DNA of 64,000 nucleotides from an uncultured Candidatus Saccharibacteria bacterium (GTDB lineage Bacteria; Patescibacteriota; Minisyncoccia; Phycocordibacterales; PALSA-1337): NCBI GenBank assembly GCA_964412585.1, contig CAYPPJ010000002.1:77720-141719 (forward strand), in the 5' to 3' direction. The notes below the pieces were generated by a model. It did not search any database. It was given only the letters and a program-made list of their open reading frames with translations, and was not told where the DNA came from. The position numbers were made by a program, and so were the translations under genes. Below are positions 7,170-62,222 of this stretch, in pieces (the stretch's first letter is position 1; each line of letters begins with the position of its first letter).

Positions 7170-7390
7170 AGTATTGAGTTCGGTTAGGGGATTCAGTTCG
7201 CAGACGATAGTGTCAGCGTGTCACTGTCTCCCCAGTCCCGAACTCAATCTACTGTATTCAAGGTACTTTCCTTTACTTACTTGTATAATTATTGCATAAT
7301 TTGTCCGAATTGTCAATTAAAAAATCACAAATAAAGCCTTGTTTTCCAATATATATTGATAAATAAGGCTAAAAATGTGTCAACAAAGTA

Positions 7391-43611: not shown

Positions 43612-43654
43612 ATCTTCAGCGAATCTTTATCATTTCTTCAGCGTTTCTTCAGTT
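43612..43654 (+). repeat. 43-bp direct repeat, copy 1 (ATCTTCAGCGAATCTTTATCATTTCTTCAGCGTTTCTTCAGTT), 22 nt upstream of the comEC N-terminal ORF
   Basis: Identical to 45700-45742; contains the internal sub-repeat TCTTCAGCG twice plus TCTTCAG. Confidence 0.8.
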
Positions 43655-45675: not shown

Positions 45676-45699
45676 GAAGGAATTGTACAACAGAATAGA

Positions 45700-45742
45700 A
45701 TCTTCAGCGAATCTTTATCATTTCTTCAGCGTTTCTTCAGTT
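45700..45742 (+). repeat. 43-bp direct repeat, copy 2, 20 nt upstream of the comEC C-terminal ORF
   Basis: Exact copy of 43612-43654. Confidence 0.8.
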
Positions 45743-47635: not shown

Positions 47636-47663
47636 TTGACTATCTTACCAGTTGTGGTATAAT
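47636..47663 (+). promoter_or_regulatory. consensus promoter TTGACT-N16-TATAAT
   Basis: TTGACT at 47636-47641 and TATAAT at 47658-47663. Confidence 0.6.
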
Positions 47664-47669
47664 AGAGAG

Positions 47670-47768
47670 GCATTAGCACAATGCTTTTTTAAGTTTTTCG
47701 GGCGTATAAACTCCGCCCGGTTCCGGAGGGGGGAAGGCGCATGCATTCGCCGACCCCTCTCTTTTTTA
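47670..47768 (+). ncRNA. candidate ~100-nt small RNA or terminated leader (promoter, two to three hairpins, intrinsic terminator) upstream of the str operon
   Basis: Begins just after the promoter at 47636-47663. Hairpins GCATTagcacAATGC and CGGGCG-tataaact-CGCCCG, then a terminator GAGGGGGG...CCCCTC followed by TCTTTTTT (47725-47767). No ORF. Confidence 0.35.
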
Positions 47769-47940
47769 TTTGCATTTATTTGCCAAACCACATTTCCCAT
47801 GCTAAGGTAACCCCACTGTCTTCTAGGGAACTTCTTTGGAAGATCGGTACATTATTACGGCGAGAATGAGTAATCGATACACGCAGGCTTCGGCCACTCA
47901 AGTGTGTGTCGGTGAAGAATTCAGGATCGCCATTAAAGCA

Positions 47941-48013
47941 CAAGAGATTAGTAACTAGTAATTAGAGGATGCATTTTTCTAATTACTCATTACTAATTAC
48001 TATTTACTAACTT
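47941..48013 (+). repeat. AT-rich imperfect-palindrome element, copy A (GAGATTAGTAACTAGTAATTAGAGG...TTCTAATTACTCATTACTAATTACT), abutting the rpsL start
   Basis: Same family as 60911-61007 and 61200-61291; folds as a long hairpin. Confidence 0.7.
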
Positions 48014-48430
48014 ATGCCTACAATAAATCAGCTCACGAAGCGGAATCGTACTCGTTTCACCCGAAAGTCAAAGTCGGTTGCTCTTACGCGTACATTCAAC
48101 ACCATCAAGAACCACCCGGTTTTCTTTCCGGCTCCGTTCAAGCGCGGTGTATGTGTCAAAGTTACTACCAAGACCCCAAAGAAACCTAACTCAGCTATTC
48201 GCAAGATTGCTCGTGTTCGTCTTTCAAATGGCATGGAAGTCACTGCGTATATCCCTGGCGAAGGTCATAACCTCCAGGAACACTCAGTGGTTCTCCTGCG
48301 TGGTGGTCGCGTCAAGGACGTCGGTCTCCGCTATACAGTAGTCCGCGGTGTCTTGGATGCAGCAGGTGTCGAGAAGCGTCGCAAAGGTCGCAGCCAATAC
48401 GGAAACAAGAAGCCAAAGGCAGCTAAGTAG
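48014..48430 (+). CDS. rpsL: 30S ribosomal protein S12
   Basis: MPTINQL..., ...[70 protein letters not shown]... Confidence 0.9.
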
Positions 48431-48457
48431 CCCTTTCGTTCTTAATTTCAAACTACA

Positions 48458-48928
48458 ATGCGAAGAAAAATAAACATCAAAAGAGATTTGCGACCAGATA
48501 TGAACTACCAGTCACTCAAACTGGGCAAGTTTACTAACTACATTATGGAGTCTGGCAAGAAAAATATCGCTCGCGGTATTGTCGCTGACTGTATGACCAT
48601 GATCAAGGAAAAGATGAAGACAGAGACTCCTCTCGAAGTATTCGAGGCGGCGCTCAAGAACACCATGCCGCTCATGGAAGTCCGTTCTCGCCGTGTCGGT
48701 GGTGCAAACTACCAAGTTCCGCGCGAAGTTCGTCCAGAACGTCGCCAATCACTCTCAATGAAATGGATTGTTGAGGCTGCACGCGGCAAAAAGGGTAAGC
48801 CGATCGCAGAAAAGCTCGCTGACGAGATTATTGCTGCAAGCAAGAATGAAGGTGAGGCAATCAAGAAGCGTGAAAACATGCACAAGATGGCAGAAGCCAA
48901 CAAGGCGTTTGCTCACTTTGCGTGGTAA
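48458..48928 (+). CDS. rpsG: 30S ribosomal protein S7
   Basis: ...GKKNIARGIVADCMTMIKEKMKTETPLEVFEAALKNTMPLMEVRSRRVGGANYQVPREVRPERRQSLSMKWIV... is canonical S7. Confidence 0.9.
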   Translation: MRRKINIKRDLRPDMNYQSLKLGKFTNYIMESGKKNIARGIVADCMTMIKEKMKTETPLEVFEAALKNTMPLMEVRSRRVGGANYQVPREVRPERRQSLSMKWIVEAARGKKGKPIAEKLADEIIAASKNEGEAIKKRENMHKMAEANKAFAHFAW

Positions 48929-48955
48929 TAATCACTTTCCACAGGTTTTCTACGA

Positions 48956-48982
48956 TTTGAGGTGCCAAATTGGCACCTCAAA
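48956..48982 (+). terminator. perfect 13-bp inverted repeat TTTGAGGTGCCAA-a-TTGGCACCTCAAA followed by a T-rich tract, between rpsG and the inserted ORF6N gene
   Basis: Read directly. Confidence 0.55.
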
Positions 48983-49003
48983 TTTGTTTATAGGTGATAG
49001 CAT

Positions 49004-49555
49004 TTGAGAATGGTTGAAAAGAAATTGTCCGAAACAAGTTTGGTACTTCCTGTTACTCCAGAATTCATAGAAAGGAGGATATTTTTGGTGCGTGGCAAGA
49101 AGGTTATGCTGAGTCCGGATTTAGCCGAACTATACCAGGTCGAGCCGCGTGTCCTAATCCAAGCAGTTAAAAGGAATCAAAAGAGGTTTCCTGATGATTT
49201 TATGTTTCAATTGTCTGTAGAAGATGTCGATTCTTTGAAATCACAATTTGTGATTTCAAAATCTGGTCAAGGTGGTAGTCGTCACTTGCCCTACGCTTTC
49301 ACCGAGCTCGGTGTCGCTATGCTTTCATCGGTCCTCAAAAGCGACCGGGCCGTCCAGATGAACATCTACATCATGCGCGCATTCGTGAAGTTGCGCGAAA
49401 TGCTGGCTACCCACAAGGATTTAGCAGAAAAGATTGAGGCTTTGGAAAGGGAACAGAAGGAGCAAGGCAAGGATATTACGATTATTTCCAGAATGGTTAG
49501 TAAGTTACTGGCAGAGAAGGAAAAACTGAGGAGTGCGATAGGGTTTGAGGCGTGA
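49004..49555 (+). CDS. ORF6N-domain (KilA-N-like, phage-associated DNA-binding) protein inserted into the str operon
   Basis: LVRGKKVMLSPDLAELYQVEPRVLIQAVKRNQKRFPDDFMFQLS...RHLPYAFTELGVAMLSSVLKSDRAVQMNIYIMRAFVKLRE matches the ORF6N pattern IRGxKVMLDxDLAxLYGVxTxxLNQAVKRNxxRFPxDFMFQLT...YLPYAFTEQGVAMLSSVLxSxxAVxVNIxIMRAFV. Confidence 0.6.
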   Translation: MRMVEKKLSETSLVLPVTPEFIERRIFLVRGKKVMLSPDLAELYQVEPRVLIQAVKRNQKRFPDDFMFQLSVEDVDSLKSQFVISKSGQGGSRHLPYAFTELGVAMLSSVLKSDRAVQMNIYIMRAFVKLREMLATHKDLAEKIEALEREQKEQGKDITIISRMVSKLLAEKEKLRSAIGFEA

Positions 49556-49685
49556 TGACTTTATTTGATTATTTCACCATTTTACTGTACATTACCTCTA
49601 CAAAAAGGCACACTATGCTTTTTAATTTTCACTAAATTTTGGTCCACTTTTATCAATTAACGGCCCAAATTATTAGCATTATTCT

Positions 49686-51830
49686 ATGAACCGCGACTAC
49701 CCGCTCGATAAAGTACGTAACTTCGGTATCATCGCCCACATCGATGCCGGAAAAACCACCACATCGGAACGTATCCTTTACTACACTGGCATGATCCACA
49801 AGATCGGCGAGGTGCACGAAGGGGAGACAACCACTGACTGGATGGAACAGGAGCGCGAGCGCGGTATCACCATTACGGCTGCTGCCATTACTTGTTTCTG
49901 GAACCCAACCTATATGCCAAAGACGGACACTTCAAAAAAGGTCCGCTTCAACATCATCGATACCCCAGGACACATCGACTTCACCGTAGAAGTGAAGCGC
50001 TCTCTCCGCGTGCTCGACGGTGCAGTCGTGGTCTTCGACGGTGTGGCTGGCGTGGAACCTCAGTCAGAGACAAACTGGCGCTATGCCGATGAAGGCAAGG
50101 TCCCTCGTCTCTGTTTCATCAACAAGATGGACCGTATGGGCGCCTCATTTGAACGCTCATACAAATCTATTCTCGAGCGTCTCAACAAGAACGCTGTTCG
50201 TTTCCAGATCCCTATTGGTACCGAGGGTGACCACGTCGGCGTCGTTGACCTCATGAAGATGAAGGCTTATACCTTCTCGGGCGAAAAGGGTATCGATATC
50301 AATGAAGCAGAGATTCCTGCTGACATGCTCGAAGACGCGAAGAAATTCCGTGCAGAGATGGTTGAAAAGATTGTTGAGACCGATGATGCGGCCATGACCA
50401 AGTTCCTCGAGGGAACACAGTTTAGTATCGACGAACTCAAGGCTCTTACTCGAAAGGCGGTCATTCATAACAAGATTTTCCCTGTGTTTACCGGTTCCGC
50501 ACTCAAGAACGTCGGTGTCCAACTTGTCTTGGATGCGGTTGTCGATTATCTCCCATCTCCACTCGATATTCCAGCGGTCAAGGGTATCAACCCAAACACT
50601 GGTGAAGAAGTAGTGCGCCATGCTTCAGATGAGGAGCCGTTTACTGCGCTTGCATTCAAGTTGCAAAACGACCCATTCGTCGGAGCCCTGACATTCTTCC
50701 GTGTATATTCAGGAACGATTGAGGCGGGTACTTATATTTACAATGCGACAACTGGCAAAAAAGAACGTCTCGGTCGTATCGTCCGTCTCCAAGCAGACAA
50801 GCGTGAAGAGGTTAAGAAGGTGTATGCAGGAGAAATTGCTGCGGCTGTCGGTCTCAAGGATGCACTCACTTCTCATACGTTCTGTGACGAAAACAATCCT
50901 ATTGTTCTCGAGCAAATCAAGTTTATGGAGCCAGTGGTCTCTCTCCGTATCGAGCCAAAGACAAAAGCTGATCAGGAAAAGATGGGTATGGCACTTCGCA
51001 AACTTGGTAACGAAGACCCAACGTTCCGCGTTTCCTCAAACCAAGAGACTGGCGAGACTATTATCTCAGGTATGGGAGAACTCCACCTCGAAATCATGGT
51101 TGATCGTATGAAGCGCGAGTTTAGCGTTGAAGCTAATGTCGGTGAACCGCAGGTAGCGTATCGTGAGACCATTCTCAATACTGCAGAAGCAGAACACAAG
51201 TACATCAAGCAGACTGGTGGTAAGGGTCAATACGGTCACGTTCGCATCACTCTCAAGCCGATGGAAAAGTTGGTTGAAGGTGAAAAGGTGCCAAAGAACG
51301 TCAAGCGCTACGATGATTTTGAATTTATCAACTCGATCAAGGGTGGTGTGATTCCAAATGAATTTATTCCAGCAGTTGAAAAGGGTGTTCATGAAGCTAT
51401 GGACCGCGGTATTGTCGCTGGGTTCAAGATGGTGAATGTCTCATGTGAACTCACGTTCGGTTCCTATCACGATGTTGACTCGTCTGAAATTGCCTACAAG
51501 ATTGCCGCATCACAAGCGTTCCAAGAAGCTGCAAAGCGTGCAAAGCCAGTTATTCTCGAGCCTATCATGCGCCTCGAAGTTGTTGCCCCAGAAAAATACA
51601 TGGGTGACATCAATGGTTCTATCGCCTCAAAGCGCGGTATGATCGAGGGTCAGGAGCCAAAGGGTCAGAATATTGCTATCCATGCCAAGGTTCCATTGTC
51701 AGAAATGTTCGGCTACACCACCTCACTTCGTTCGATGACTTCTGGTCAGGGAAGTGCAATGATGGAGTTTGATCACTATGAGGTCGTGCCGGGCAACGTA
51801 GAAAAGGAGATTGTTGAGAAGAGGAAGTAG
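49686..51830 (+). CDS. fusA: translation elongation factor G
   Basis: GIIAHIDAGKTTTSERIL..., DTPGHIDFT..., NKMDR... G-domain motifs plus complete domains II-V. Confidence 0.95.
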   Translation: MNRDYPLDKVRNFGIIAHIDAGKTTTSERILYYTGMIHKIGEVHEGETTTDWMEQERERGITITAAAITCFWNPTYMPKTDTSKKVRFNIIDTPGHIDFTVEVKRSLRVLDGAVVVFDGVAGVEPQSETNWRYADEGKVPRLCFINKMDRMGASFERSYKSILERLNKNAVRFQIPIGTEGDHVGVVDLMKMKAYTFSGEKGIDINEAEIPADMLEDAKKFRAEMVEKIVETDDAAMTKFLEGTQFSIDELKALTRKAVIHNKIFPVFTGSALKNVGVQLVLDAVVDYLPSPLDIPAVKGINPNTGEEVVRHASDEEPFTALAFKLQNDPFVGALTFFRVYSGTIEAGTYIYNATTGKKERLGRIVRLQADKREEVKKVYAGEIAAAVGLKDALTSHTFCDENNPIVLEQIKFMEPVVSLRIEPKTKADQEKMGMALRKLGNEDPTFRVSSNQETGETIISGMGELHLEIMVDRMKREFSVEANVGEPQVAYRETILNTAEAEHKYIKQTGGKGQYGHVRITLKPMEKLVEGEKVPKNVKRYDDFEFINSIKGGVIPNEFIPAVEKGVHEAMDRGIVAGFKMVNVSCELTFGSYHDVDSSEIAYKIAASQAFQEAAKRAKPVILEPIMRLEVVAPEKYMGDINGSIASKRGMIEGQEPKGQNIAIHAKVPLSEMFGYTTSLRSMTSGQGSAMMEFDHYEVVPGNVEKEIVEKRK

Positions 51831-51869
51831 TCGCTCGTAATGAGTGATTAGAGATTAGAAAAGCTTACA

Positions 51870-51906
51870 AAAAACCGCCCAGATTGGATGAAGGGCGGTT
51901 TTTTTG
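51870..51906 (+). terminator. terminator after fusA
   Basis: AAAAACCGCCC-agattggatgaa-GGGCGGTTTTTTTG. Confidence 0.7.
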
Positions 51907-51996
51907 TTGTACACAAGAGGAAAATTATTATGTAAATAGATGCGGTATACTGGGGGCATTAGATTATTCTTGGAATTTATTAAACTAATTATTTTT

Positions 51997-54876
51997 ATGA
52001 AGAAAATCACCAGAATTGCATTAGTGGGTTTTATGGCACTCTCGTCTATTTTTCTGTTCAATAATCAGGTTCGGGCCGAGTTAACACCTTGTTTGGATAA
52101 CTATGTCTATCCTGGACCAGGGCTCGTTCACTTGAGTCCTTGTACCGTGAATATTGATATGGTTGATGGTGCGGGCAATGTACCCATTAACGTCATGCTT
52201 GTGGATCAAAATAGTGGATATGGTGGATATACAGGATATGAGATTGAGCAACCCACAGGGTTTCCGGAATATGGTCTGAGCAAAAATGTAAGTTCGGGTG
52301 TTATTGTAGGTCAGACATCCATTGGTTTCACTGCTATTGATTCGGTGCTTGCTGCTAGTGGTACGCAGCCACGTATATATAATGGCAAAGTTGATATACA
52401 TCTTTTTCGGGGCACTTCATTACCAGACGGGAACAATGTTACTTTGTATATAAATATTAAAGTTTATCCCGCTGGTAGCACGATCCCACCAAAAACTAAT
52501 GTTAACCCAACTCTTTCGGCGATATCTGTAGTAAGTACAAGTGAAGACTATGTGAGTGGGGACGGTTTTAGTCCTGATGGGTGGGCTGATTGGAAGTTGA
52601 ATTTCAATCTTGCGGCAAATTCGGAAAAATCTATAAGACGTATTACTATCGCAAATAATTGGGGGCACGGTAATTATGGTTCTATTGATGCGTGGTCGAC
52701 TGGACTAGCTGCGGCTTACCCCTTGGATGGTATGCCTGTGTACCCATTACTTGTTACTTCTGGAGGTTACACCTTGTCATTAAGAGGAGATATTATACCA
52801 ATATCAAATATCCAAAACCAAACATACACCTTATACGCTCCAGTAGGACCTAGTGGTCCTGCGTGGACGGGGGGTAATCTTTTTGTTGAATTCACTGATG
52901 GCACTAGAATTACTGCTGATTTGCCGGCTTCAAATGCGAAACCGATTAATAAGCCATCAATAAAAACAATAACACCTACTTTGGCCTTGGTGGGTACGCA
53001 GGTAACTCTCACGGGAGTTTTTCCAGATGTGAATTCGATTCGGTTGACCCCCTCACCGAGCGGGAATGGATATCAAGCGATATCTCCAGTTTTTTCGCCC
53101 GACAGTACGCATCTAGATTTTAGTATTCCAAATGAATATTCTTCGTTTAATGGAAATGTTGCAGTTACAGTTACTGACTCAAAAGGACAAATTTCTAATT
53201 CACAGAGTTTGAATATAGTTATGTCGACGAGTACAAACCAAATCGTCTCCCGTCTCGACCCCTCAAGTCCTCCTGCTCGTACCGCCATCATTTCACCCAC
53301 GACTGTTACAGATAACGTAGTTCTTGGTGTATTTGATTTCAAGTCACAGAACAAGGATGCTACACTGCGCTCTATTAAATTCAAAGTATGGACGAGTACG
53401 TCAACGGTACAGACAACTTTCAACACGATCAAGATCAAGGTTGGATCGACGACATACTATCCGAGCAGCATAGCTCAGAGTGGTGCATACGCTGTCGTCA
53501 CATATACAAATCTTGCTGTACCAATGCCCGCTTCACAGTTCGTGCCTATAATTGTGTATGGCACAGTTGCTCCTGATCGCACGGGTGTTATGAATGGCGC
53601 GCGAGTGGCAGTAAACATTCTCGCAAGTAACTCGACAGTATATGCTGACGATGCCACATTTACACAGGTTCCCGTTGCTCAAACAGAACTTACCTCAAGC
53701 GATCTGACCTTCGCCACTGCAGCAACAAAGAGTATTACCCTCAACAAACTCGTTCTTTCTTCGAGCTATCATGTTGGCGATATTATTCCAATCAAATGGA
53801 GCTCAACCAATGTCAACAATGTCGTCATCAACTTGATGAACTACAAAGGCTTGTCAGTTGTGCGCTTCATTGCCTCATCGACTGCGTCAGTAGGGCAGTA
53901 CAATTGGACTGTTCCTTCAAATATTGATTTTAACTACGATACGATCTATACGATTGCGGTATCTGATGCGGCTACGCCAAGCATTATTTCGAAGTCAGGA
54001 AAAATAGAATTGCTCCCAGCCACCCCGAACGCTTCACCTGTGGCCATAAGCAACCAAGTTACGTCATTTGTGCCGTTGGTGACACCAAATGGCACGACGG
54101 GGGGAAATGCAACCTTTGCCTTCACATTGACTGCTGGCAGCAATCCAATATACATCAGTAGGACGGCCTCAGGGGTCATGACGTTGGTTCCAGTAGGCAT
54201 GACAGTCTCAATCAATTCAGTCACTGCCGAACCTGCGGGTGTGAGTGGTGATAGCAATTCTTCCTTTGTTATACCTGCAGGAACATCACGACGATTTACC
54301 TATAACGCATTCCTTGATAATTCCAATGGCACAACAGGTCAGAAACTTGTTTCGATACAATCGATTATCTATGGCATGACAGCGGCAAATCCGAACGGCT
54401 ATCAGATTTCCTCAGGATTGGATAATCTCAAGTTGTCAGTGAACTTGAATAGTAATGGGACACCGCCACCAGTCACTGCATTATCGGCACGTCTTACGGT
54501 AGAGGGTCAGCATACTTACACATACACTGTCGGTCAGACCAATCACATTGCTTGGTTAGGCTCGGGTCCAAGTGGCACGGTATACTCGTCATATTCAAAA
54601 GCTAATGATGTGGGGAAGTGTGGCGAGGGAGCGTGGGTTGCAAACAATGCACAAGGAACATCCAATACCTATCTCACGGGACAATGGGCAGGATGTACGT
54701 GGACTGTTACCTACGTCGCAACAAATCCTGCAACAGGCCAATCTGTTCAGGATAGTGTGACAGTGAGCGTTGTGAGCCAGTCAACTCCACCTCCAACGAG
54801 TACGACGACGTCATATTATCCATCAAATTATGGGGCAGCGATAATAAACGCATTGACTCGTTTGTTGGGATTGTAG
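51997..54876 (+). CDS. very large secreted surface protein (about 960 aa), Thr/Ser/Asn-rich beta-sandwich-like repeats
   Basis: Start placed at MKKITRIALVGFMALSSIFLFNNQVRA (signal peptide). No catalytic motif found; the composition is typical of an adhesin or S-layer-like protein. Confidence 0.45.
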   Translation: MKKITRIALVGFMALSSIFLFNNQVRAELTPCLDNYVYPGPGLVHLSPCTVNIDMVDGAGNVPINVMLVDQNSGYGGYTGYEIEQPTGFPEYGLSKNVSSGVIVGQTSIGFTAIDSVLAASGTQPRIYNGKVDIHLFRGTSLPDGNNVTLYINIKVYPAGSTIPPKTNVNPTLSAISVVSTSEDYVSGDGFSPDGWADWKLNFNLAANSEKSIRRITIANNWGHGNYGSIDAWSTGLAAAYPLDGMPVYPLLVTSGGYTLSLRGDIIPISNIQNQTYTLYAPVGPSGPAWTGGNLFVEFTDGTRITADLPASNAKPINKPSIKTITPTLALVGTQVTLTGVFPDVNSIRLTPSPSGNGYQAISPVFSPDSTHLDFSIPNEYSSFNGNVAVTVTDSKGQISNSQSLNIVMSTSTNQIVSRLDPSSPPARTAIISPTTVTDNVVLGVFDFKSQNKDATLRSIKFKVWTSTSTVQTTFNTIKIKVGSTTYYPSSIAQSGAYAVVTYTNLAVPMPASQFVPIIVYGTVAPDRTGVMNGARVAVNILASNSTVYADDATFTQVPVAQTELTSSDLTFATAATKSITLNKLVLSSSYHVGDIIPIKWSSTNVNNVVINLMNYKGLSVVRFIASSTASVGQYNWTVPSNIDFNYDTIYTIAVSDAATPSIISKSGKIELLPATPNASPVAISNQVTSFVPLVTPNGTTGGNATFAFTLTAGSNPIYISRTASGVMTLVPVGMTVSINSVTAEPAGVSGDSNSSFVIPAGTSRRFTYNAFLDNSNGTTGQKLVSIQSIIYGMTAANPNGYQISSGLDNLKLSVNLNSNGTPPPVTALSARLTVEGQHTYTYTVGQTNHIAWLGSGPSGTVYSSYSKANDVGKCGEGAWVANNAQGTSNTYLTGQWAGCTWTVTYVATNPATGQSVQDSVTVSVVSQSTPPPTSTTTSYYPSNYGAAIINALTRLLGL

Positions 54877-54894
54877 ATTTGGAGTCGTTAGAAA

Positions 54895-54925
54895 AAACTG
54901 TCCGTTCTGCGGGCAGTTTTTTATT
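54895..54925 (+). terminator. terminator after the large surface-protein gene
   Basis: CTGTCCG-ttctg-CGGGCAG (one G-U pair) followed by T6. Confidence 0.5.
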
Positions 54926-55245
54926 GTGGACAACTGGCGAGCCATTGTAGCTGCGAGCCGAGCCGTCCCCTCTATGGGGATAACTCCACTTGGCAAAAAA
55001 ATAAAACACGATATACTTATCCCACTACCCAAGACGTGTCTCGAAAGAGCAGGTCTTTTCTTATTATTGGCGTTCGTTCTTAATCAAAACAATATGTCAC
55101 GATCACACACATCAATGTTCGGGGAAGATGTTAAGTATTTACTCGCACTTTCATTATTGGCATGGATAACATTTACCTTGCCATCAGTGCAGGCAGCTCT
55201 TATAGGCTAACCATCTCTCTGGATTATTAAGTTATTTATTATCAC

Positions 55246-56355
55246 ATGAAAAAATTAATTGTACCGATATCTCTTGTGGTGATGGCCCTCGCGGTCGCAG
55301 CGATGCTCCCAGCATTGGTCTCGGCTGAGACGTCATCAACCCGAGATTCGTGCTACACGTTCTCCAAAAATTTTGGTGTAGGCAGTGAAGGCGAACATGT
55401 CACTCGTCTTACGCAGGCTCTCATCAAAGACGGGGTTCTGTCGAATGTTGAAAAGATTTTCGATGAGGATCTAGCTGGGGCTATAGTCAAATTCCAAAAC
55501 AAATACGGTATTCCAACCACCGGATATGTTGGGCCACTGACTCGCGCCAAGCTCAATTCGCTCTATGGGTGTGGAACTCAAGGAAACTCCACAAGCGTAC
55601 GATATGAATGTCCGCCAGGCTATATTTGCACACCTTCTGGTCAAACTACCAATGCGGTAGTGTGTCCGGCAGGCTATACGTGCTCGCCCAATTCATCGAT
55701 TCCTGAACAGCCCTATGTGTCAGGTATGATCAAGTGTGTGTTCAATGGCTCGATGAAGAATGAGAAGTGTTATTCTACAGACGGTAGGTTCTATTTCAAC
55801 GGTACCGGGTCAACTGGTGGCGTCATCTATGGAAGACTTGGTTCTTCCATGACATGGAAAAGCACCTGCGGTGGCTCTGTTAACACGACTAATGATGGGG
55901 GGAATGCGTATGCAAATTTCACCTGTTCGTCACCACAAGGGACATCAGAACCTACGTCAATATGTCCGACAGGGTATATCTGTACTACCCAAACGGCCCC
56001 TATTCAATCACCAGAAACTCCATTTATTGCGATTACCTCTCCAGTTGGCGGACAAGCCTATGAAGTGGGGAATCGCATGGCGGTTCAATGGCGCAGTAGC
56101 GGTATTCCATCATCACAAAACCTTGATGTTATTCGTCTGCGTAGTGTAGCAACTGGGCAAGAATACTATCTGGCTTCAGGGGTCCCAAACAACGGCGATG
56201 TGCTGCTCTTGGTTCCATCATTGGATGCTGGGCAATACACACTGGAAATAAAATCATCCATACCTGGCTTTTCAGGTGCGGTGATGGCGCAAAGTGCCGT
56301 ATTCGATATCAGCGCAGCAGTCCTACCTGGAAGCCGTGACGCAGTGCGTCAATAA
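55246..56355 (+). CDS. secreted protein with a peptidoglycan-binding (PG_binding_1-like) domain and Cys-rich CPxGYxCT repeats
   Basis: Signal peptide; LTQALIKDGVL...AIVKFQNKYGIPTTGYVGPLTRAKL is PG_binding_1-like; then CPPGYICTPSG, CPAGYTCSP and CPTGYICTT repeats. Confidence 0.5.
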   Translation: MKKLIVPISLVVMALAVAAMLPALVSAETSSTRDSCYTFSKNFGVGSEGEHVTRLTQALIKDGVLSNVEKIFDEDLAGAIVKFQNKYGIPTTGYVGPLTRAKLNSLYGCGTQGNSTSVRYECPPGYICTPSGQTTNAVVCPAGYTCSPNSSIPEQPYVSGMIKCVFNGSMKNEKCYSTDGRFYFNGTGSTGGVIYGRLGSSMTWKSTCGGSVNTTNDGGNAYANFTCSSPQGTSEPTSICPTGYICTTQTAPIQSPETPFIAITSPVGGQAYEVGNRMAVQWRSSGIPSSQNLDVIRLRSVATGQEYYLASGVPNNGDVLLLVPSLDAGQYTLEIKSSIPGFSGAVMAQSAVFDISAAVLPGSRDAVRQ

Positions 56356-56409
56356 CCATATTTACAAACACGGTGCCCAGGTCGACATCGTGCCAAACTT
56401 AACTGAAAT

Positions 56410-56440
56410 CCCCGCACCTTACCGGTTGCGGGGGTTTTTC
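56410..56440 (+). terminator. terminator
   Basis: CCCCGCA-ccttaccggtt-GCGGGG followed by T5. Confidence 0.6.
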
Positions 56441-56460
56441 GTACACGCTACACTGTTCTC

Positions 56461-57057
56461 ATGAATACTCCACAAGCGTTTATATTTATTGGCAGATCAG
56501 GGTGCGGAAAAGGCACGCAGGTTCAGCTCCTCATTGATGTGCTCAAGAGCAAGATGCCTGCGATTGATGCATTGTATATACAGACTGGCCAGCAATTCCG
56601 TGATTTTATTTTAAAAAAGGGGGCAACAGCCCAAAAAGCAAAGGAGATTTATGATGTTGGCGGTCTTGAACCAGAATTCCTTTCTACCTACATGTGGGTC
56701 AAAGAACTTGAGGAAAAATATGTCGGCAATCAGCATGTGATATTTGATGGTACGCCACGAAAGATGCACGAGGCCGGGGTGCTCCATTCGTGTTTTGGTT
56801 TTTACGGCCTCACCAAGCCATGGGTAGTTAATATTGATATTAGCGAAGAAGAATCCGCACGCCGTCTTATGGCCCGAAAGCGTATGGATGACACAGAAGA
56901 AGATGTAAAAAAGCGCCTTGCTTGGTACGAGACAGATGTGGTGCCAACATTGGGTTATTACGACGGCAATCCGGCTTATAATTTCATTAAAATATTTGGA
57001 AATCGCAGCATTGAAGATGTTCACGCTGACATTGTGAAAAAGCTAGGCTTGGTGTAG
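56461..57057 (+). CDS. adk: adenylate kinase family protein (short form lacking a zinc lid)
   Basis: The P-loop FIFIGRSGCGKGTQ (compare GxPGxGKGTQ), ...FDGTPRK... and ...KRLAWYE...LGYY follow the adenylate-kinase layout. Confidence 0.65.
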   Translation: MNTPQAFIFIGRSGCGKGTQVQLLIDVLKSKMPAIDALYIQTGQQFRDFILKKGATAQKAKEIYDVGGLEPEFLSTYMWVKELEEKYVGNQHVIFDGTPRKMHEAGVLHSCFGFYGLTKPWVVNIDISEEESARRLMARKRMDDTEEDVKKRLAWYETDVVPTLGYYDGNPAYNFIKIFGNRSIEDVHADIVKKLGLV

Positions 57058-57066
57058 TTTTAGGCC

Positions 57067-57834
57067 ATGGTCAATATAAAGACAAAGCAGGACATCGCTA
57101 TACTCCGCGAAGGAGGTAAACGTCATGCCTATATTCTCAAGGAACTGGTCAAGATGGCCAAGCCTGGTGTGCACGTGATTGATCTAGATACACGCGCGGC
57201 TGAGCTTATCCGTGAAGGTGGGGACATGCCTGCATTTTTGAACTACCAACCCTATGGCGCCTCTCGCCCATATCCCGCGACGCTCTGTGTTTCTATAAAT
57301 GATGAGATTGTTCACGGTATTCCAACGGAGGGGGACAAGGTCCTCAAGGAGGGAGACATTGTGAGTATTGATCTTGGACTCGTCCATAAAGAACTCATCA
57401 CTGATGCCGCTGTAACCGTTGCGGTAGGTTCTATTTCTCCAGAGCTGAGCGGATTACTCACAAAGACACAGGAAGCTCTCATGGCCGGTATAAAGGCCGC
57501 AAAGGGGGGTGCTCGCGTGGGGGACATTAGTAATGCAATTCAGCGCATTGGAGTGGCCGAAAAGTACGGCATTGTAGAGGAGCTGGCTGGCCACGGTGTT
57601 GGATATCATGTTCACGAAGATCCATATGTCCCAAATTTCGGACGTGCGGGCAAAGGAGAGCTCCTCAAGCCTGGCATGGTCATCGCGATTGAGCCGATGT
57701 TCAATCTTGGTACCAAAAAAATAAAGTTGGACGCCGATGGATATACCTATCGAACTGCAGACGGCAAGCCGAGCGCTCATTTTGAGCACACAGTAGTTAT
57801 CACCAAGAGCGGCGCAGAGATTTTGACCGCGTGA
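57067..57834 (+). CDS. map: type I methionine aminopeptidase
   Basis: Metal ligands in ...IVSIDLGL..., ...GHGVGYHVHE... and ...VIAIEPM.... Confidence 0.9.
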   Translation: MVNIKTKQDIAILREGGKRHAYILKELVKMAKPGVHVIDLDTRAAELIREGGDMPAFLNYQPYGASRPYPATLCVSINDEIVHGIPTEGDKVLKEGDIVSIDLGLVHKELITDAAVTVAVGSISPELSGLLTKTQEALMAGIKAAKGGARVGDISNAIQRIGVAEKYGIVEELAGHGVGYHVHEDPYVPNFGRAGKGELLKPGMVIAIEPMFNLGTKKIKLDADGYTYRTADGKPSAHFEHTVVITKSGAEILTA

Positions 57835-57847
57835 TACACTGTATCCC

Positions 57848-58465
57848 ATGAAAAACTCTACTACAGGTCACCCTAAGCTCGAACGTACGTTAGTTATTAT
57901 CAAGCCAGATGGCATACAGCGCGGACTCATTGCTGAGATTATAAAACGATATGAACAGATTGGCCTCAAGTTGGTGGCAATTAAGATGATGGTCCCTACC
58001 GCTGAGCTGATTGAAAAACACTACACACTTGATCCGGAATGGCGCGTGAAGACGGGGCTCAAAACCATTAAAGGATACGAAGATAAGGGTCTTACACCCC
58101 CACTAACTGATCCGTTGAAGATAACCGAAATCATTTTAAGAAATAATGTGGCATACATGACCAAGGGGCCCATTATAGTCATGATATGGCAAGGTGCTCA
58201 TGCAGTTCAGATCGTGCGTAAATTAACTGGTGGTACGGAACCACTCACGTCAGATGTAGGTACTATTCGAGGTGATTTTGTCCTAGATTCATATAGTATG
58301 AGTGATGGGGATGGGCGAGCGGTTCGCAATCTCGTGCATGCCTCTGGATCTATCAAAGACGCCAATGATGAGATAGCTCATTGGTTCAAAAAAGAGGAGA
58401 TTTTTGACTACACACTCCTCAATGAAGCCATGTTGTACGACCTCAGTCTCGATGGAATCCTCTAA
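57848..58465 (+). CDS. ndk: nucleoside-diphosphate kinase (with an internal insertion)
   Basis: ERTLVIIKPDGIQRGLIAEII..., ...RGDF... and NLVHASGS (the NxxHGSD catalytic His region). Confidence 0.75.
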   Translation: MKNSTTGHPKLERTLVIIKPDGIQRGLIAEIIKRYEQIGLKLVAIKMMVPTAELIEKHYTLDPEWRVKTGLKTIKGYEDKGLTPPLTDPLKITEIILRNNVAYMTKGPIIVMIWQGAHAVQIVRKLTGGTEPLTSDVGTIRGDFVLDSYSMSDGDGRAVRNLVHASGSIKDANDEIAHWFKKEEIFDYTLLNEAMLYDLSLDGIL

Positions 58466-58758
58466 CTTGTGCACGACACACAGTTGTCGTGTTTGTAAAA
58501 CGAATGTTATAACTCACTATCCACTTTTACCGTACGGCAAACAGGAATACAATGAATGCAGGTTGCGGAGTATTAAACCCTATACCAATTTATACGGGAG
58601 CTCGACGAACTTCGGTTCACATTAGGTTGCACCTTGGTGCTAACCTTGAGAGCACCCACCTAGTTTTTCTAGGTTAATCAATACTTCGTAACCTACCCAA
58701 AGATCGTCTCCTCGTGAGATGATTTTTGATTTAGAAGAAAAAAAGTTATACTTACCCA

Positions 58759-59124
58759 ATGCTTTCTTACATACTCGCTCTGGTTGTCCTCGCGGTTGTT
58801 CTTGCAGGTCTTTCTCTCGGTCCTGACGCAACGTATATTAGTATGAAATATTTTGACAGCGTCCTCCATCTGCTGGCAGGTGTCGGTCTCGGATTCTTTT
58901 TTGATGCACTGACTCTCTCGATCGGTTCACGTCGCTGGCACACACGCTGGGGCATAGTGCTCATAGTTTTCGGGGGAGGAATTGCTTGGGAAATATTTGA
59001 GGCTTATTTCAATATTACCGGATTCAAGCTTTGGACAACGATGTATTATCTTGATACGGCAAAGGATTTGTTGCTCGACACAGTCGGTGCATGGGTGGCG
59101 GTGCACATAGTTACGCATAAATAA
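58759..59124 (+). CDS. hypothetical small integral membrane protein
   Basis: Hydrophobicity pattern only. Confidence 0.35.
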   Translation: MLSYILALVVLAVVLAGLSLGPDATYISMKYFDSVLHLLAGVGLGFFFDALTLSIGSRRWHTRWGIVLIVFGGGIAWEIFEAYFNITGFKLWTTMYYLDTAKDLLLDTVGAWVAVHIVTHK

Positions 59125-59129
59125 TTCCC

Positions 59130-60521
59130 ATGTCTATTCCACGAGTTACATTTTATAGTGGTGTTGGAACGGTAACTGGTGCCAATTTTATGTTGGACAC
59201 GGGGAAATCTAAGATTCTCATTGATTGCGGCATGGTCCAGGGAGAAAAATTTGCGATGGAAGAAAACGCGCAGCCGTTTGCCTATGATATCTCATCGATT
59301 GATGCGCTTATTATCACCCATGCTCATCTCGATCATGTTGGCCGTATTCCTAAATTGGTAAAAGATGGATACCAGGGTCCAATATATTCAACTCTAGAGA
59401 CACGACAGCTTGCAGAATTGGTGCTCAATGACGCGGTTGGTATATTGGCAATCGAGGCCAAACAAAATGAAGTTGTGCCAATGTATGGCATTGAAGATGT
59501 GGAGGCTGTGTTTCCTTTATGGAAAACAATTCCGTATCATCAAGATGCACAAATCACAGACGATGTGAGTGTATTTTTGAAGGATGCCGGTCATATTCTC
59601 GGCTCTGCAATGATCGAGGCGCGCATTAGGAAGCAGGGAGAAGGAAATGTTGGAAACGGGGAAATCAAAGTTCTATTTACCGGTGATGTTGGTAATTCAC
59701 CCGCGCCACTTCTCCGAGACACGGAATCAGTCGGAGATGTCGACTATATGGTTACCGAGAGTGTGTACGGAGATAGAAATCATGAAGACAGGGCGACTCG
59801 CTCACAGCAATTTGAAAAAATAGTAAATGACACTCTTGCGCGTGGTGGCACATTGGTCATCCCTGCATTTTCAATAGATCGTACCCAGGTTCTTTTGTAT
59901 GAATTGAATAATCTTGTTGAGCAAAAAAAGATCCCGTCCGTTCCAGTGTTTGTCGACTCACCGATGGCGATAAAAGCGACCGAGGTATATCAGGAGAGTA
60001 CCCAATTATTCAATGACCATGTTAGATCACAGATTGCGGGCGGAGATAATATTTTCAATTTCCCACACCTCCAGTTTACTGTGTCCCAAAATGAGTCGCG
60101 AGACATTGAACGTCTCCAAGGGGCAAAGATTATCCTTGCTGGTTCGGGAATGTCCGTTGGGGGTCGCGTGTTGAGCCATGAAGAAGACTTTTTACCTGAT
60201 CCAAAGAATACAGTCTTACTTGTGGGATATCAGACGACTGGTTCGGTTGGTCGCCAACTTGCAGACGGTGCAAAGAAGGTCACTATTCATGGTCGTACGG
60301 TCAAAGTGAAAGCCCATGTTGAGGCTCTGTACGGCTATTCGGCACACAAAGATAGCGATCACATGGTCGAGTTCGTGGCGACAGCAACAAATCGGCTGCA
60401 AAAGGTATTTGTCGTCATGGGAGAACCAAAAGCCTCGATGCATTTGGCGCAGCGGCTCAATGATGAGTTGGTAGTAAAGGCGATGGTGCCGGAGAGGGGA
60501 GTTGGATACGAGTTGGAATAA
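59130..60521 (+). CDS. metallo-beta-lactamase-fold beta-CASP family hydrolase (RNA-metabolising type)
   Basis: ILIDCG...ITHAHLDHVGRIP (HxHxDH), then downstream Asp/His motifs and a beta-CASP-like C-terminal region. Confidence 0.65.
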   Translation: MSIPRVTFYSGVGTVTGANFMLDTGKSKILIDCGMVQGEKFAMEENAQPFAYDISSIDALIITHAHLDHVGRIPKLVKDGYQGPIYSTLETRQLAELVLNDAVGILAIEAKQNEVVPMYGIEDVEAVFPLWKTIPYHQDAQITDDVSVFLKDAGHILGSAMIEARIRKQGEGNVGNGEIKVLFTGDVGNSPAPLLRDTESVGDVDYMVTESVYGDRNHEDRATRSQQFEKIVNDTLARGGTLVIPAFSIDRTQVLLYELNNLVEQKKIPSVPVFVDSPMAIKATEVYQESTQLFNDHVRSQIAGGDNIFNFPHLQFTVSQNESRDIERLQGAKIILAGSGMSVGGRVLSHEEDFLPDPKNTVLLVGYQTTGSVGRQLADGAKKVTIHGRTVKVKAHVEALYGYSAHKDSDHMVEFVATATNRLQKVFVVMGEPKASMHLAQRLNDELVVKAMVPERGVGYELE

Positions 60522-60536
60522 GTTTTCATCATATAT

Positions 60537-60565
60537 TAAAAACCCCGGAAGACCGGGGTTTTTAA
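60537..60565. terminator. bidirectional terminator between the MBL gene and rplT
   Basis: AAAAACCCCGG-aaga-CCGGGGTTTTT. Confidence 0.7.
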
Positions 60566-60910
60566 TTATTTTACCTTTGAAACTACTCGTGCAAATGTCT
60601 CGGGCTTGAATTCTGCGAGATGAGCCAGAATCTTGCGATCGAGCTCGATGTTCTTTTTCTTTGCTGCTCCGATAAACTTTGAGTATGAGAAGCCCAATGG
60701 ACGAAGGCCGGCATTGATCTTGACGTTGAAAAGACGGCGCATGTCACCCTTTTTGTCGCGGCGATGAGCGAGGGCGTATGCCCCAGCGTGTTGGAGGGCA
60801 TCAATAGCCATGCGCTCCTTCTTTGAGCGACCAAATCGGAAGCCCTTTGCGGCCTTGAGGATGGAACGGCGGTGTTTGAGGGCGTTTACTGCTTTCTTTA
60901 CACGGGTCAT
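60566..60910 (-). CDS. rplT: 50S ribosomal protein L20
   Basis: MTRVKKAVNALKHRRSILKAAKGFRFGRSKKERMAIDALQHAG... Confidence 0.9.
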   Translation of the reverse strand: MTRVKKAVNALKHRRSILKAAKGFRFGRSKKERMAIDALQHAGAYALAHRRDKKGDMRRLFNVKINAGLRPLGFSYSKFIGAAKKKNIELDRKILAHLAEFKPETFARVVSKVK

Positions 60911-61007
60911 GGTAGTAGTTAAGTAATTAGTAATTAGTAACTAGTAATTAGAGAATGATGTGTTTGTTTTTCTAATCTCCAATTACTAGTTACTAATCTC
61001 TTATTGT
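60911..61007 (-). repeat. AT-rich imperfect-palindrome element, copy B, filling the rpmI-rplT intergenic region
   Basis: GTAATTAGTAATTAGTAACTAGTAATTAGAGAATG...TTCTAATCTCCAATTACTAGTTACTAATCTC; the arms pair over about 15 bp perfectly plus additional imperfect pairs. Confidence 0.7.
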
Positions 61008-61199
61008 TTATAAATTGACGAGGAATCGACTCTTGGCCTTATTGTCCATGTGAATGGTATTCATACGGCGCTTGTTGGTGCTGGTGCGAGTTCGCTCACG
61101 TGCGTTGAAGTGGTTTTGGCCAGCCTTGCGCGACAAAATCTTGCCATTTTTGGTGACCTTGAGACGCTTGAGATATGATTTGGTGGTTTTGATACTCAT
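61008..61199 (-). CDS. rpmI: 50S ribosomal protein L35
   Basis: MSIKTTKSYLKRLKVTKNGKILSRKAGQNHF... Confidence 0.85.
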   Translation of the reverse strand: MSIKTTKSYLKRLKVTKNGKILSRKAGQNHFNARERTRTSTNKRRMNTIHMDNKAKSRFLVNL

Positions 61200-61291
61200 A
61201 AATTTAGTAATTAGTAACTGGTAATTGGTAATTAGAGAATCGCAAGCCGTACCTTCTAATTACTATTTACTAGTTACTAATCTCTATGTGA
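61200..61291 (-). repeat. AT-rich imperfect-palindrome element, copy C, filling the infC-rpmI intergenic region
   Basis: TAGTAATTAGTAACTGGTAATTGGTAATTAGAGAATC...TTCTAATTACTATTTACTAGTTACTAATCTC. Confidence 0.7.
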
Positions 61292-61810
61292 TTACTTCTT
61301 TTCTATAACAATACTCAATCCCTTCGGTCCTTTGGTTACGTCCTGCGCGACCTTGTATTCGACGGTCACGAGCTTGAGGAGGCGTTCGAGACGTTCCTTA
61401 AGAAAGTTGAGGTCCATATACTTGGATCGTCCGATGAGGAAGAGGTCTATCTTGACTCGATTACCTTCGCCGAGCCATTCTGAGACTCGCTTGGCCTTGA
61501 GTTCGAGGTCATGCTCGCCAGTTCCAATCTTGACTTGAACTATCTTGAGTTCACTGGTCTGGACTTTGGCTTTGGCAGCTTTCTCCTTCTTCTTTTCATC
61601 GTACAGGTACTTTCCATAATCCATTATCTTCGCAACCGGGGGAATAGCGGTCGGGGAGATTTCGATCAGGTCCAGAGTGCGCTTTTGGGCTTCTGCAAGG
61701 GCGACAGAGAGGGTGATAACACCGAGATTTTCTCCTTCGGCTGTTATAACGCGCAACTCAGGCGCTTTTATCTGATGATTTATTTTGACTCGAATGGCCA
61801 AGTGATTGGG
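61292..61810 (-). CDS. infC: translation initiation factor IF-3 (probable non-AUG start)
   Basis: ...APELRVITAEGENLGVITLSVALAEAQKRTLDLIEIS... with a conserved C-terminal domain. The canonical N-terminus begins inside the ORF with no Met, consistent with the AUU/AUA start common for infC; the 5' coordinate is approximate. Confidence 0.75.
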   Translation of the reverse strand, partial: PNHLAIRVKINHQIKAPELRVITAEGENLGVITLSVALAEAQKRTLDLIEISPTAIPPVAKIMDYGKYLYDEKKKEKAAKAKVQTSELKIVQVKIGTGEHDLELKAKRVSEWLGEGNRVKIDLFLIGRSKYMDLNFLKERLERLLKLVTVEYKVAQDVTKGPKGLSIVIEKK

Positions 61811-61907
61811 ATTACAGGGGTTATTTATAACATACAGCGCTGTATTCTGCAACCCGCGAGCCCTATCCACATTGCGGTTATATGAGGGTGGGGGGTACAA
61901 TAGAGGC

Positions 61908-62222
61908 ATGCCTGGCGAGTCAGTTCAATTCTCACAAACTAAACATCACCGCAAGTCGGTAGCAGCACTTGTTGTGGCGGTGGTCGTGTTTGGTATTATC
62001 ATTGCCAACTATTTGTCTTCTGACAAATCCCAGCAGGAAGTGCAAACATCAGTTAGGTCACAGACTCCACAAGAACGTCTGGTAGCAGTATTGGACGCCT
62101 CACCTGATGTGTCAGTTTCGGTAGATCAAAAAAATCGTGCTGTTAACGAATTGAAAAAAAGTCGAGCCACACTTTCAAATAGTCAAAAGTCAGACATTAT
62201 TAGCTCGTTACAAGAACGTTAA
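61908..62222 (+). CDS. hypothetical small membrane protein
   Basis: Start taken at the internal Met (MPGESVQF...) with one TM helix; it is divergent from infC. Confidence 0.35.
   Translation: MPGESVQFSQTKHHRKSVAALVVAVVVFGIIIANYLSSDKSQQEVQTSVRSQTPQERLVAVLDASPDVSVSVDQKNRAVNELKKSRATLSNSQKSDIISSLQER

Follow-up and report, generated by a model that had tools for sequence, protein, structure and literature searches.

Hairpins of inverted heptamer arrays fill the spacers before three ribosomal-protein genes of a Taylorbacteria-like bacterium and very probably belong to a dispersed, fast-changing cassette

The 64-kb stretch of contig CAYPPJ010000002.1 analyzed here (the window) contains three related imperfect palindromes of 70-97 nt, designated E1, E2, and E3. 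They are built from inverted arrays of 7-nt units and stand directly in front of the ribosomal-protein genes rpsL, rplT, and rpmI, respectively. An earlier note on this DNA had described elements filling these three spacers, and the location is confirmed here; E1-E3 are a real feature. They are very probably dispersed, non-coding hairpin cassettes with fast turnover, and not conserved leaders. The cassettes are placed at stop-to-start junctions and in the leaders of non-leaderless genes in Taylorbacteria-like members of the Candidate Phyla Radiation (CPR). We tentatively suggest that they process and stabilize the mRNA. The whole of this explanation, a dispersed intercistronic cassette that punctuates the mRNA, has in our estimate a probability of about 40%. 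The main rival is tolerated selfish DNA, which is nearly as likely.

Results

E1 (47938-48013, + strand) lies between a conserved RNA leader of rpsL and the rpsL ATG at 48014. Strains L015 and L012, in which the site is empty, place its left boundary after CCATTAAA. The element consists of a 5' flank (GCACA), a 5' arm (47943-47969), a loop (47970-47974), a 3' arm (47975-48001), and an unpaired G-free tail (48002-48013). E2 (61007-60911, - strand) occupies the whole spacer from the rpmI stop codon to the rplT ATG, with the 5' arm at 61001-60976, a loop that begins GAAAAAC at 60975-60955, the 3' arm at 60954-60929, and the G-free tail at 60928-60911. E3 (61291-61200, - strand) likewise takes up the whole spacer from the infC stop codon to the rpmI ATG (5' arm 61286-61248, loop 61247-61243, 3' arm 61242-61205, tail 61204-61200). 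Read along the direction of the downstream gene, all three open with an identical 19-mer, AGAGATTAGTAACTAGTAA.

The arm motif TAGTAACTAGTAATTAGAG, with up to three mismatches, has eight matches in the window, and all eight fall inside the three spacers; 0.01 are expected from shuffled sequences. For AGTAATTAG there are eight matches versus 0.47 expected. Period-7 tandem repeats were detected with Tandem Repeats Finder in E1-E3 only (3.7-5.4 copies), and no tandem repeats with periods of 5, 6, 8, or 9 were found in the window. A profile built from seven copies and searched over the window returned no copy beyond E1-E3. The predicted hairpins have folding energies of -22 to -36 kcal/mol (z = -3.7 to -7.2), and 0/200 shuffles were as stable. 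The earlier note had the arms pairing over at least 15 bp; pairing is indeed predicted, with stems that extend over 22-32 bp. The E2 stem has 23 continuous pairs, and the helices of E1 and E3 are interrupted. Identical copies were seen in several independent assemblies (JGI, Logan), and the elements are thus not assembly artefacts. All three are at the starts of ribosomal-protein genes, which account for 5 of the 65 gene starts in the window (hypergeometric P = 2.3e-4). Two ribosomal-protein genes of the same window, rpsG and rpmB, are without an element.

The general plan of the element is AGAG + (TAGTAAY)n, a loop, and TCTCTAA + (TTACTAR)n up to the ATG. In the sense of the gene, the 5' side reads (A)CA, AGAG, and then three to four purine-type heptamers TAGTAAY. 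The 3' side consists of five to six G-free heptamers TTACTAR that reach the ATG, and the 3' array is longer than the 5' arm in every case. The loop-proximal core is T[TA]GA[AG]AAAC ... ATTCTCTA[AG]. The architecture and this core are kept across differing heptamer families. Stop codons are present in all three frames of both strands within the cassette, and its 5' side has one in every frame. The stem begins 4-9 nt past the upstream stop codon (median approximately 6 nt), and an unpaired G-free tail of 5-27 nt precedes the start codon. A strict Watson-Crick hairpin scan missed G.U-rich variants.

E1, E2, and E3 have a common polarity relative to the downstream gene. The G content is 0-9% in the ATG-side arm versus 20-45% in the 5' arm in 15/15 hairpins, and all seven occurrences of the GAAAAAC-type core are in sense, with none in antisense. 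E1 is on the + strand and E2 and E3 are on the - strand, while the GC skew is constant along the window. The polarity thus tracks transcription and not replication.

The best named homologues of the L20 protein belong to Candidatus Taylorbacteria (Parcubacteria/Paceibacterota, CPR). Shine-Dalgarno (SD) motifs are essentially absent across the 65 gene starts of the window. In approximately 30 of these genes (approximately 45%), a TAnnnT box stands 6-9 nt ahead of the ATG, a sharp peak over a background of about one per position; most genes are thus leaderless or nearly so. This box is absent before rpsL, rpmI, and rplT. By the length of the upstream G-poor tract, rpsL ranks 1st, rplT 2nd, and rpmI 4th among the 65 genes. 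Within E2 and E3 the scans predict neither a promoter nor a terminator; both elements should therefore be co-transcribed as intercistronic RNA. Other ribosomal-protein genes of the relatives have short G-free tracts upstream (for example, AACTACC ATG), some of them expanded into direct heptamer-like arrays. Such G-free arrays without a 5' arm were observed before ribosomal-protein ATGs at L23/L2 of locus L042, S17/L14 of L041, and L22/S3 of L002. Locus L042 also has a purine-rich solo array (7226-7270) after the rplB stop codon.

The occupancy of the sites differs between close strains. In a strain from SRR12901019, with an identical L20 protein and an rpsL of 96.6% nucleotide identity, E1 and E2 are absent and E3 is kept. 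The near-identical strain L006 lacks E2 and has E3, and L015 has an empty site in place of E1. Upstream of rpsL in relatives at 91-93% rpsL identity, no element is present in L012 and L016, and L014 and L020 have a hairpin of like design and different sequence. Another hairpin is found before rpsG in L016. The hairpins of L014 and L016, like those of L035 and L039 described below, are of other heptamer types.

The two junctions of the infC-rpmI-rplT unit can be followed through more distant relatives. In L033 (L20 identity 93%), the infC-rpmI spacer is 29 nt with no hairpin, and the rpmI-rplT spacer of 38 nt holds a relic, CTAGTTACTAA. In L035 (88%), a hairpin of TGGATAT/ATATCTA units is present between infC and rpmI, and the rpmI-rplT junction is empty (21 nt). 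The infC-rpmI spacers of L033 and L035 are thus a clean empty/filled pair. In L037/38, which is Taylorbacteria 45_16 (86%), an unrelated hairpin lies between infC and rpmI and a TAGTAA-type copy between rpmI and rplT. The loop and 3' arm of this copy match E3 of the window, which is at a different locus, and not E2. In L039 (85%), the infC-rpmI spacer is structured with no repeat-unit hairpin, and the rpmI-rplT spacer has a hairpin of GGGAGAC/AATCTCC units; the AATCTCC-type units are common to L039 and L042, which come from one sample. Possible target-site duplications are a 2-nt CA in L035 and CACA in L037. At E1 and E2, 9-10 nt were replaced and not duplicated.

Further copies occur elsewhere, both at different junctions and in different genomes. 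The 19-mer AGAGATTAGTAACTAGTAA occurs at 4 loci in 185,579 species genomes, none of them from the genome of the window, and at 12 loci in metagenome contigs, five of which (L021, L023, L025, L027, and L032) are partial or fall within coding or AT-rich sequence. There were no matches in viral contigs and thus no link to phages. Taylorbacteria 45_16 carries copies at S3/L16 (rpsC/rplP) and L35/L20, and a half copy directly after rplU. The profile search of its ribosomal-protein cluster added three more copies, partly degenerate, at S17/L14, L14/L24, and L24/L5; this genome thus has at least six copies at separate loci. Across approximately 100 kb of sequence from Taylorbacteria-like loci, every repeat-unit hairpin is at a ribosomal-protein junction, and the other strong hairpins are ordinary GC-stem/T-run terminators.

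Three copies are next to genes of other kinds. A copy abuts the dnaX ATG in a Saccharibacteria metagenome-assembled genome (MAG), and another lies between the genes of carbamate kinase (arcC) and ornithine carbamoyltransferase (OTC) in a MAG labelled Bacteroidota. In L026, positions 306-368 form a near-perfect palindrome, AGAGATTAGTAA...TTACTAATCTCT, exactly at the tpiA/pgk junction. It provides the last five tpiA codons and the stop codon, and leaves pgk without a canonical start; in the window, tpiA and pgk overlap by 20 nt. The claim that the motif is seen before ribosomal genes only therefore holds in the window and in the Taylorbacteria-like relatives, and fails in distant genomes (OTC, pgk, dnaX). 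A further heptamer hairpin, at 8326-8420 of L025, is in frame within the open reading frame (ORF) of a glycosyltransferase and encodes ...QSPVTNHQSLITE....

Among the window ORFs scanned with Pfam there is no transposase, RAYT, TnpB, or RNase III, and neither a transposase nor RAYT is present in the neighboring gene tables.

The region next to E1 has an RNA that behaves differently. A structured leader of rpsL (47808-47932, + strand) lies between the M50-peptidase gene and the insertion site of E1. It has 45 predicted pairs, of which 11 show compensatory changes across five relatives, and it has no Rfam match. Unlike the adjoining E1, it is conserved in all relatives compared. We regard it as a candidate new leader of the S12/S7 operon in Taylorbacteria-like CPR, and it serves as an internal control for the look of a conserved cis-regulatory RNA in this lineage. 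Further upstream, 47636-47768 (+ strand) has a near-consensus promoter (TTGACT-16-TGnTATAAT, 11/12 matches), followed approximately 40-100 nt later by a GC-rich hairpin with a T-run, which may represent a small RNA or else an attenuator that precedes the leader. The equivalent region of the relatives has a different sequence, yet also a GC hairpin and a T-run.

Discussion

The earlier note had listed a lineage-specific repeat resembling MITEs (miniature inverted-repeat transposable elements) among its candidates. This is supported by the dispersed copies, the presence/absence between strains, the relics, and the related copies in further genomes and at further junctions. In the manner of MITE or REP elements, the copies are related, non-coding, and dispersed, they have inverted arms, and their presence/absence polymorphism leaves recognizable empty sites.

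The sites occupied can be related to the way genes start in this host. With no SD motifs and a -10 box abutting the ATG in approximately 45% of genes, an insert would be tolerable only in leadered or operon-internal cistrons, which are chiefly those of ribosomal proteins. The cassette would be a self-sufficient junction: the stop codons in all frames would end the upstream ORF, and the G-free tail would serve SD-independent initiation. Together with the abutment of most promoters to the ATG, this would explain why the cassette is seen in a single position and orientation.

For the function, we suggest the following sequence of events. The element would be co-transcribed, and its helix would punctuate the mRNA. 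The helix would direct RNase Y to cut a few nt 5' of it, where the upstream cistron ends, and would then stand at the new 5' end and block an RNase J-type 5'-3' exonuclease. The downstream ribosomal-protein cistron would thereby be uncoupled and stabilized, and the G-free tail would act as an SD-independent landing site for the ribosome. The geometry fits that of an RNase Y guide helix, with stems of 22-32 bp beginning 4-9 nt past the stop codon, and the window contains a gene for RNase Y (12704-14233, - strand; Pfam RNase_Y_N + KH + HD), the candidate trans-acting endonuclease. A gene for a beta-CASP RNase J-like nuclease (59130-60521, + strand; Pfam Lactamase_B + Beta-Casp + RMMBL) may supply the 5'-3' exonuclease. 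There is a precedent in S. aureus, where RNase Y is guided by a 24-bp helix to a cut 6 nt upstream of it and the fragment downstream is stabilized (PMC5449607). The infC-rpmI-rplT transcript of B. subtilis is processed by RNase Y, and stem-loops at a 5' end shield RNA from 5'-3' decay (PMC3997798).

Several observations weigh against this explanation. The processing step is argued from geometry and precedent. In most of 16 hairpins the antisense strand folds more strongly than the sense strand, which has A.C where the antisense has G.U; selection for a stable RNA helix in the sense strand would predict otherwise. Some copies are degenerate and fold weakly, at -9.3 kcal/mol for S17/L14 and -11.7 kcal/mol for L24/L5. 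The absence of both E1 and E2 from a close strain shows that both are dispensable. The in-ORF copy of L025 and the removal of the pgk start in L026 resemble selfish insertion. Most of the related loci were obtained around ribosomal-protein genes, and the sample is therefore biased. The scanned ORFs of the window offer no transposase for the spread, and no target-site duplication is clear.

The main rival holds that the elements are functionless palindromic repeats, selfish or neutral, which are MITE/REP-like or were spread by gene conversion between similar G-free tracts before start codons; their position and polarity would then reflect tolerance, since their own stop codons and G-free leader make an insert harmless only at stop-to-start junctions and in one orientation. 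Stop codons in every frame of both strands are expected of such an insert, as are presence/absence in near-identical strains, relics, and degenerate copies, the lack of any preference of hairpin stability for the sense strand, and the L025 and L026 insertions. The patchy occurrence across Taylorbacteria, Saccharibacteria, and the MAG labelled Bacteroidota also fits. What selfish DNA explains poorly is that the copies of the window and of the Taylorbacteria-like loci are at ribosomal-protein junctions only, despite many other same-strand junctions, and that the architecture and loop-proximal core are retained across heptamer families. No transposase was seen among the scanned ORFs of the window, target-site duplications are not clear, and the copy number is low for a MITE. 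On balance, we consider a wholly functionless repeat possible, if somewhat doubtful.

The punctuation hypothesis can be taken further, to a reading that we think unlikely. The hairpins would then be a hitherto unrecognized class of modular, transferable cassette for "operon punctuation" in SD-less, mostly leaderless CPR, exchanged among highly expressed cistrons. A single unit would combine the all-frame stop codons, a helix that guides the nuclease and protects the 5' end, and a G-free array that recruits ribosomes. The GAAAAAC...ATTCTCTA core could be bound by a dedicated protein, and exchange among cistrons would tune their output.

A second rival assigns the function to the G-free array, as an enhancer of SD-independent initiation or as a site for a factor that recognizes the repeat (S1, Csp-like, or other); the inverted 5' arm would be an anti-enhancer that masks part of the array. 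It draws on the published TAACTGA repeats (PMC4679880) as an analogue, on the lack of SD sites, and on the 3' array, which always exceeds the 5' arm and reaches the ATG. The arrays without a 5' arm in L042, L041, and L002 also speak for it. The heptamer family is genome-specific, as for the AATCTCC-type units of L039 and L042, which also agrees with a factor of this kind, but a single trans-acting factor would need to track the differing heptamers of close relatives, and no candidate for the binding protein emerged. The pattern (UAG-N4)x3 resembles binding sites of HutP; there is no HutP-like gene in the window, nor is there a 16S rRNA gene whose 3' region could pair with the heptamers. Close strains can do without the arrays, which are by prediction mostly paired, with 5-27 nt free. 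We judge this rival rather improbable.

Correia elements in Neisseria are RNase III processing sites, and the earlier note had proposed such a site here. An RNA-processing role is plausible, and stems of at least 22 bp, with 23 continuous pairs in E2, would be suitable substrates; the window, however, has genes for RNase Y and an RNase J-like nuclease and none for RNase III among its ORFs, and the helices of E1 and E3 are interrupted. RNase III sites are thus very unlikely, together with three other identities. An intrinsic terminator was rejected, as the stems are AT-rich, a U-tract is missing, and the terminator scan found none in the elements. As for a promoter, the heptamers lack a TAnnnT box at the required spacing, and none was found by the promoter scan. 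TIGR arrays are defined by hairpin units in tandem, by box C/D motifs, and by a Tas gene with a Nop domain (10.64898/2026.09.09.750476). In the window each hairpin stands alone and has a loop of 5-21 nt, consistent C/D boxes are lacking, and window scans found no Nop-domain gene, so a stem-loop guide unit of the TIGR-Tas type was rejected as well.

Autoregulatory leaders, for L20 before rpmI and rplT and for S12 or S7 before rpsL, were another proposal of the earlier note and have the position 5' of ribosomal-protein genes in their favor, but they are improbable in the extreme: one sequence precedes three genes for unrelated proteins, the orthologous spacers of close relatives are empty or have it replaced, and a separate covarying leader is present upstream of rpsL. 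Over both regions, no credible Rfam family, the L20 leader included, was found at the gathering score or at E <= 10. The sub-threshold matches are snoRNA- and miRNA-like and reflect a generic hairpin shape. L20 classically controls infC-rpmI-rplT through leader RNA (PMC1865079, PMC6097659). The present elements are like that system in the operon concerned and in placing a structured RNA ahead of ribosomal-protein genes; they differ in lying between cistrons and not 5' of infC, in not being conserved, and in occurring also before rpsL, rplP, and further genes.

The elements are a variant of heptamer and palindromic repeats that are already known. The closest are the TAACTGA direct repeats of marine Beggiatoaceae and some Cyanobacteria and Bacteroidetes (MacGregor 2015, PMC4679880). 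Those lie a few nt from start codons without an SD, are enriched in translation genes, and occur inside ribosomal-protein operons; a translation enhancer or a factor-binding site was proposed (PMC4679880). Common to both are forward-oriented 7-nt arrays that end a few nt from the start codon of ribosomal-protein genes without an SD, a patchy distribution across phyla, stop codons within the unit, and 5/7 positions as in TTACTAA. In BOGUAY, 169 direct TAACTGA sets and one indirect repeat are recorded (PMC4679880), whereas here the unit is TTACTAR/TAGTAAY and an inverted purine-type array completes a long hairpin. The present elements also differ in being from CPR, in a unit that varies between close relatives, and in their conserved loop-proximal core.

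In the cyanobacterial STRR heptamers and the P6b element of the Nostoc trnL intron, tandem 7-nt units pair into hypervariable stem-loops. They resemble E1-E3 as heptamers in non-coding transcribed DNA that pair by inversion and differ between close strains, but they belong to another phylum and are not known to be linked to start codons or ribosomal-protein genes. To our knowledge, a G-free polarity rule has not been described for them. The P6b repeat classes are mentioned in PMC4476775.

REP/BIME, ERIC, Correia/NEMIS, RUP, and the Rickettsia palindromic elements (RPE) are MITE-like palindromes that are co-transcribed in operons. Like REP, Correia, and RPE, the elements of the window are small, non-coding, imperfect, multicopy palindromes with insertion polymorphism between strains, and as co-transcribed hairpins those families can alter the processing or stability of mRNA. 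The in-frame insertion of L025 resembles RPE. In contrast to these families, the copy number here is low, the arms are tandem heptamers in place of unique terminal inverted repeats, the polarity is strict, the element abuts the downstream ATG, and no transposase/RAYT or clear target-site duplication was found.

With the helix of the S. aureus saePQRS operon (PMC5449607) the elements share a duplex of approximately 24 bp within an operon and an AU-rich single strand a few nt upstream. As in that precedent and those for RNase J, the host has genes for RNase Y and an RNase J-like nuclease, and uncoupling of the cistrons is predicted. Cleavage was demonstrated for saePQRS and is a prediction here, and the sae helix is unique and not a dispersed repeat.

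In the literature searched, we came across no account of elements like these from CPR. New are the inverted-array hairpin form, the G-free polarity with abutment to the ATG, the core across heptamer families, and the SD-less, mostly leaderless CPR host. CPR/Patescibacteria make up a large share of bacterial diversity, and their translation initiation and the balance of expression within their operons are barely known. Should the elements act on mRNA, they would give a concrete, testable handle on SD-independent initiation and operon punctuation in CPR, and on the unexplained start-codon-proximal heptamers of other phyla. The natural filled and empty alleles in the same environments would then allow metatranscriptome tests in situ. 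The transferable-cassette reading, if true, would link the start-codon heptamers of Beggiatoaceae, Cyanobacteria, and Bacteroidetes. If the elements are merely selfish, they reveal the insertion-tolerant sites of minimal genomes and are useful as strain-level markers.

Genes around the elements and further observations

E1 is followed by rpsL (S12; 48014-48430, + strand; Pfam Ribosom_S12_S23) and, after a 27-nt spacer without an element, by rpsG (S7; 48458-48928, + strand) with a terminator at 48954-48984. On the - strand, infC (IF3; 61292-61909; Pfam IF3_N, IF3_C) is the first gene of the infC-rpmI-rplT unit. Its start is uncertain (154-193 aa, depending on the gene caller), and promoter-like sites lie upstream of it at 62115-62087 and 62026-61998. 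It is followed by rpmI (L35; 61008-61199, - strand; Pfam Ribosomal_L35p), downstream of E3, and rplT (L20; 60566-60910, - strand; Pfam Ribosomal_L20), downstream of E2. A bidirectional terminator (60535-60566) follows rplT.

The slot between rpsG and fusA varies. In the window (49004-49555, + strand) it holds an ORF6N-domain gene; L012 has an LGT-like gene there, L014 has none, and L016 has another ORF. In the S10-spc clusters of L041, L042, L043, and one further locus, all from Taylorbacteria-like organisms, genes for an aminotransferase, ornithine decarboxylase, a histidine kinase, and a sigma factor interrupt the ribosomal-protein superoperon. Locus L043 also has a long-range purine/pyrimidine hairpin of approximately 130 nt (18941-19107) between an M24 peptidase gene and ndk, which stops just short of a leaderless-type promoter, TATAAT-N7-ATG.

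Two period-11 arrays of the unit TCTTCAGC(A/G)TT / GAATCTTCAGC are present on the + strand at 43613-43652 and 45698-45740 (3.6 and 3.9 copies). They sit in the spacers 5' of + strand genes, a ComEC-like gene at 43677 and an unknown gene at 45763, and may be operator sites. At 3892-30213, six genes for TrmB-like helix-turn-helix regulators are interleaved with six genes for periplasmic binding proteins (Peripla_BP_6), a repeated pairing that is unusual for a small CPR genome.

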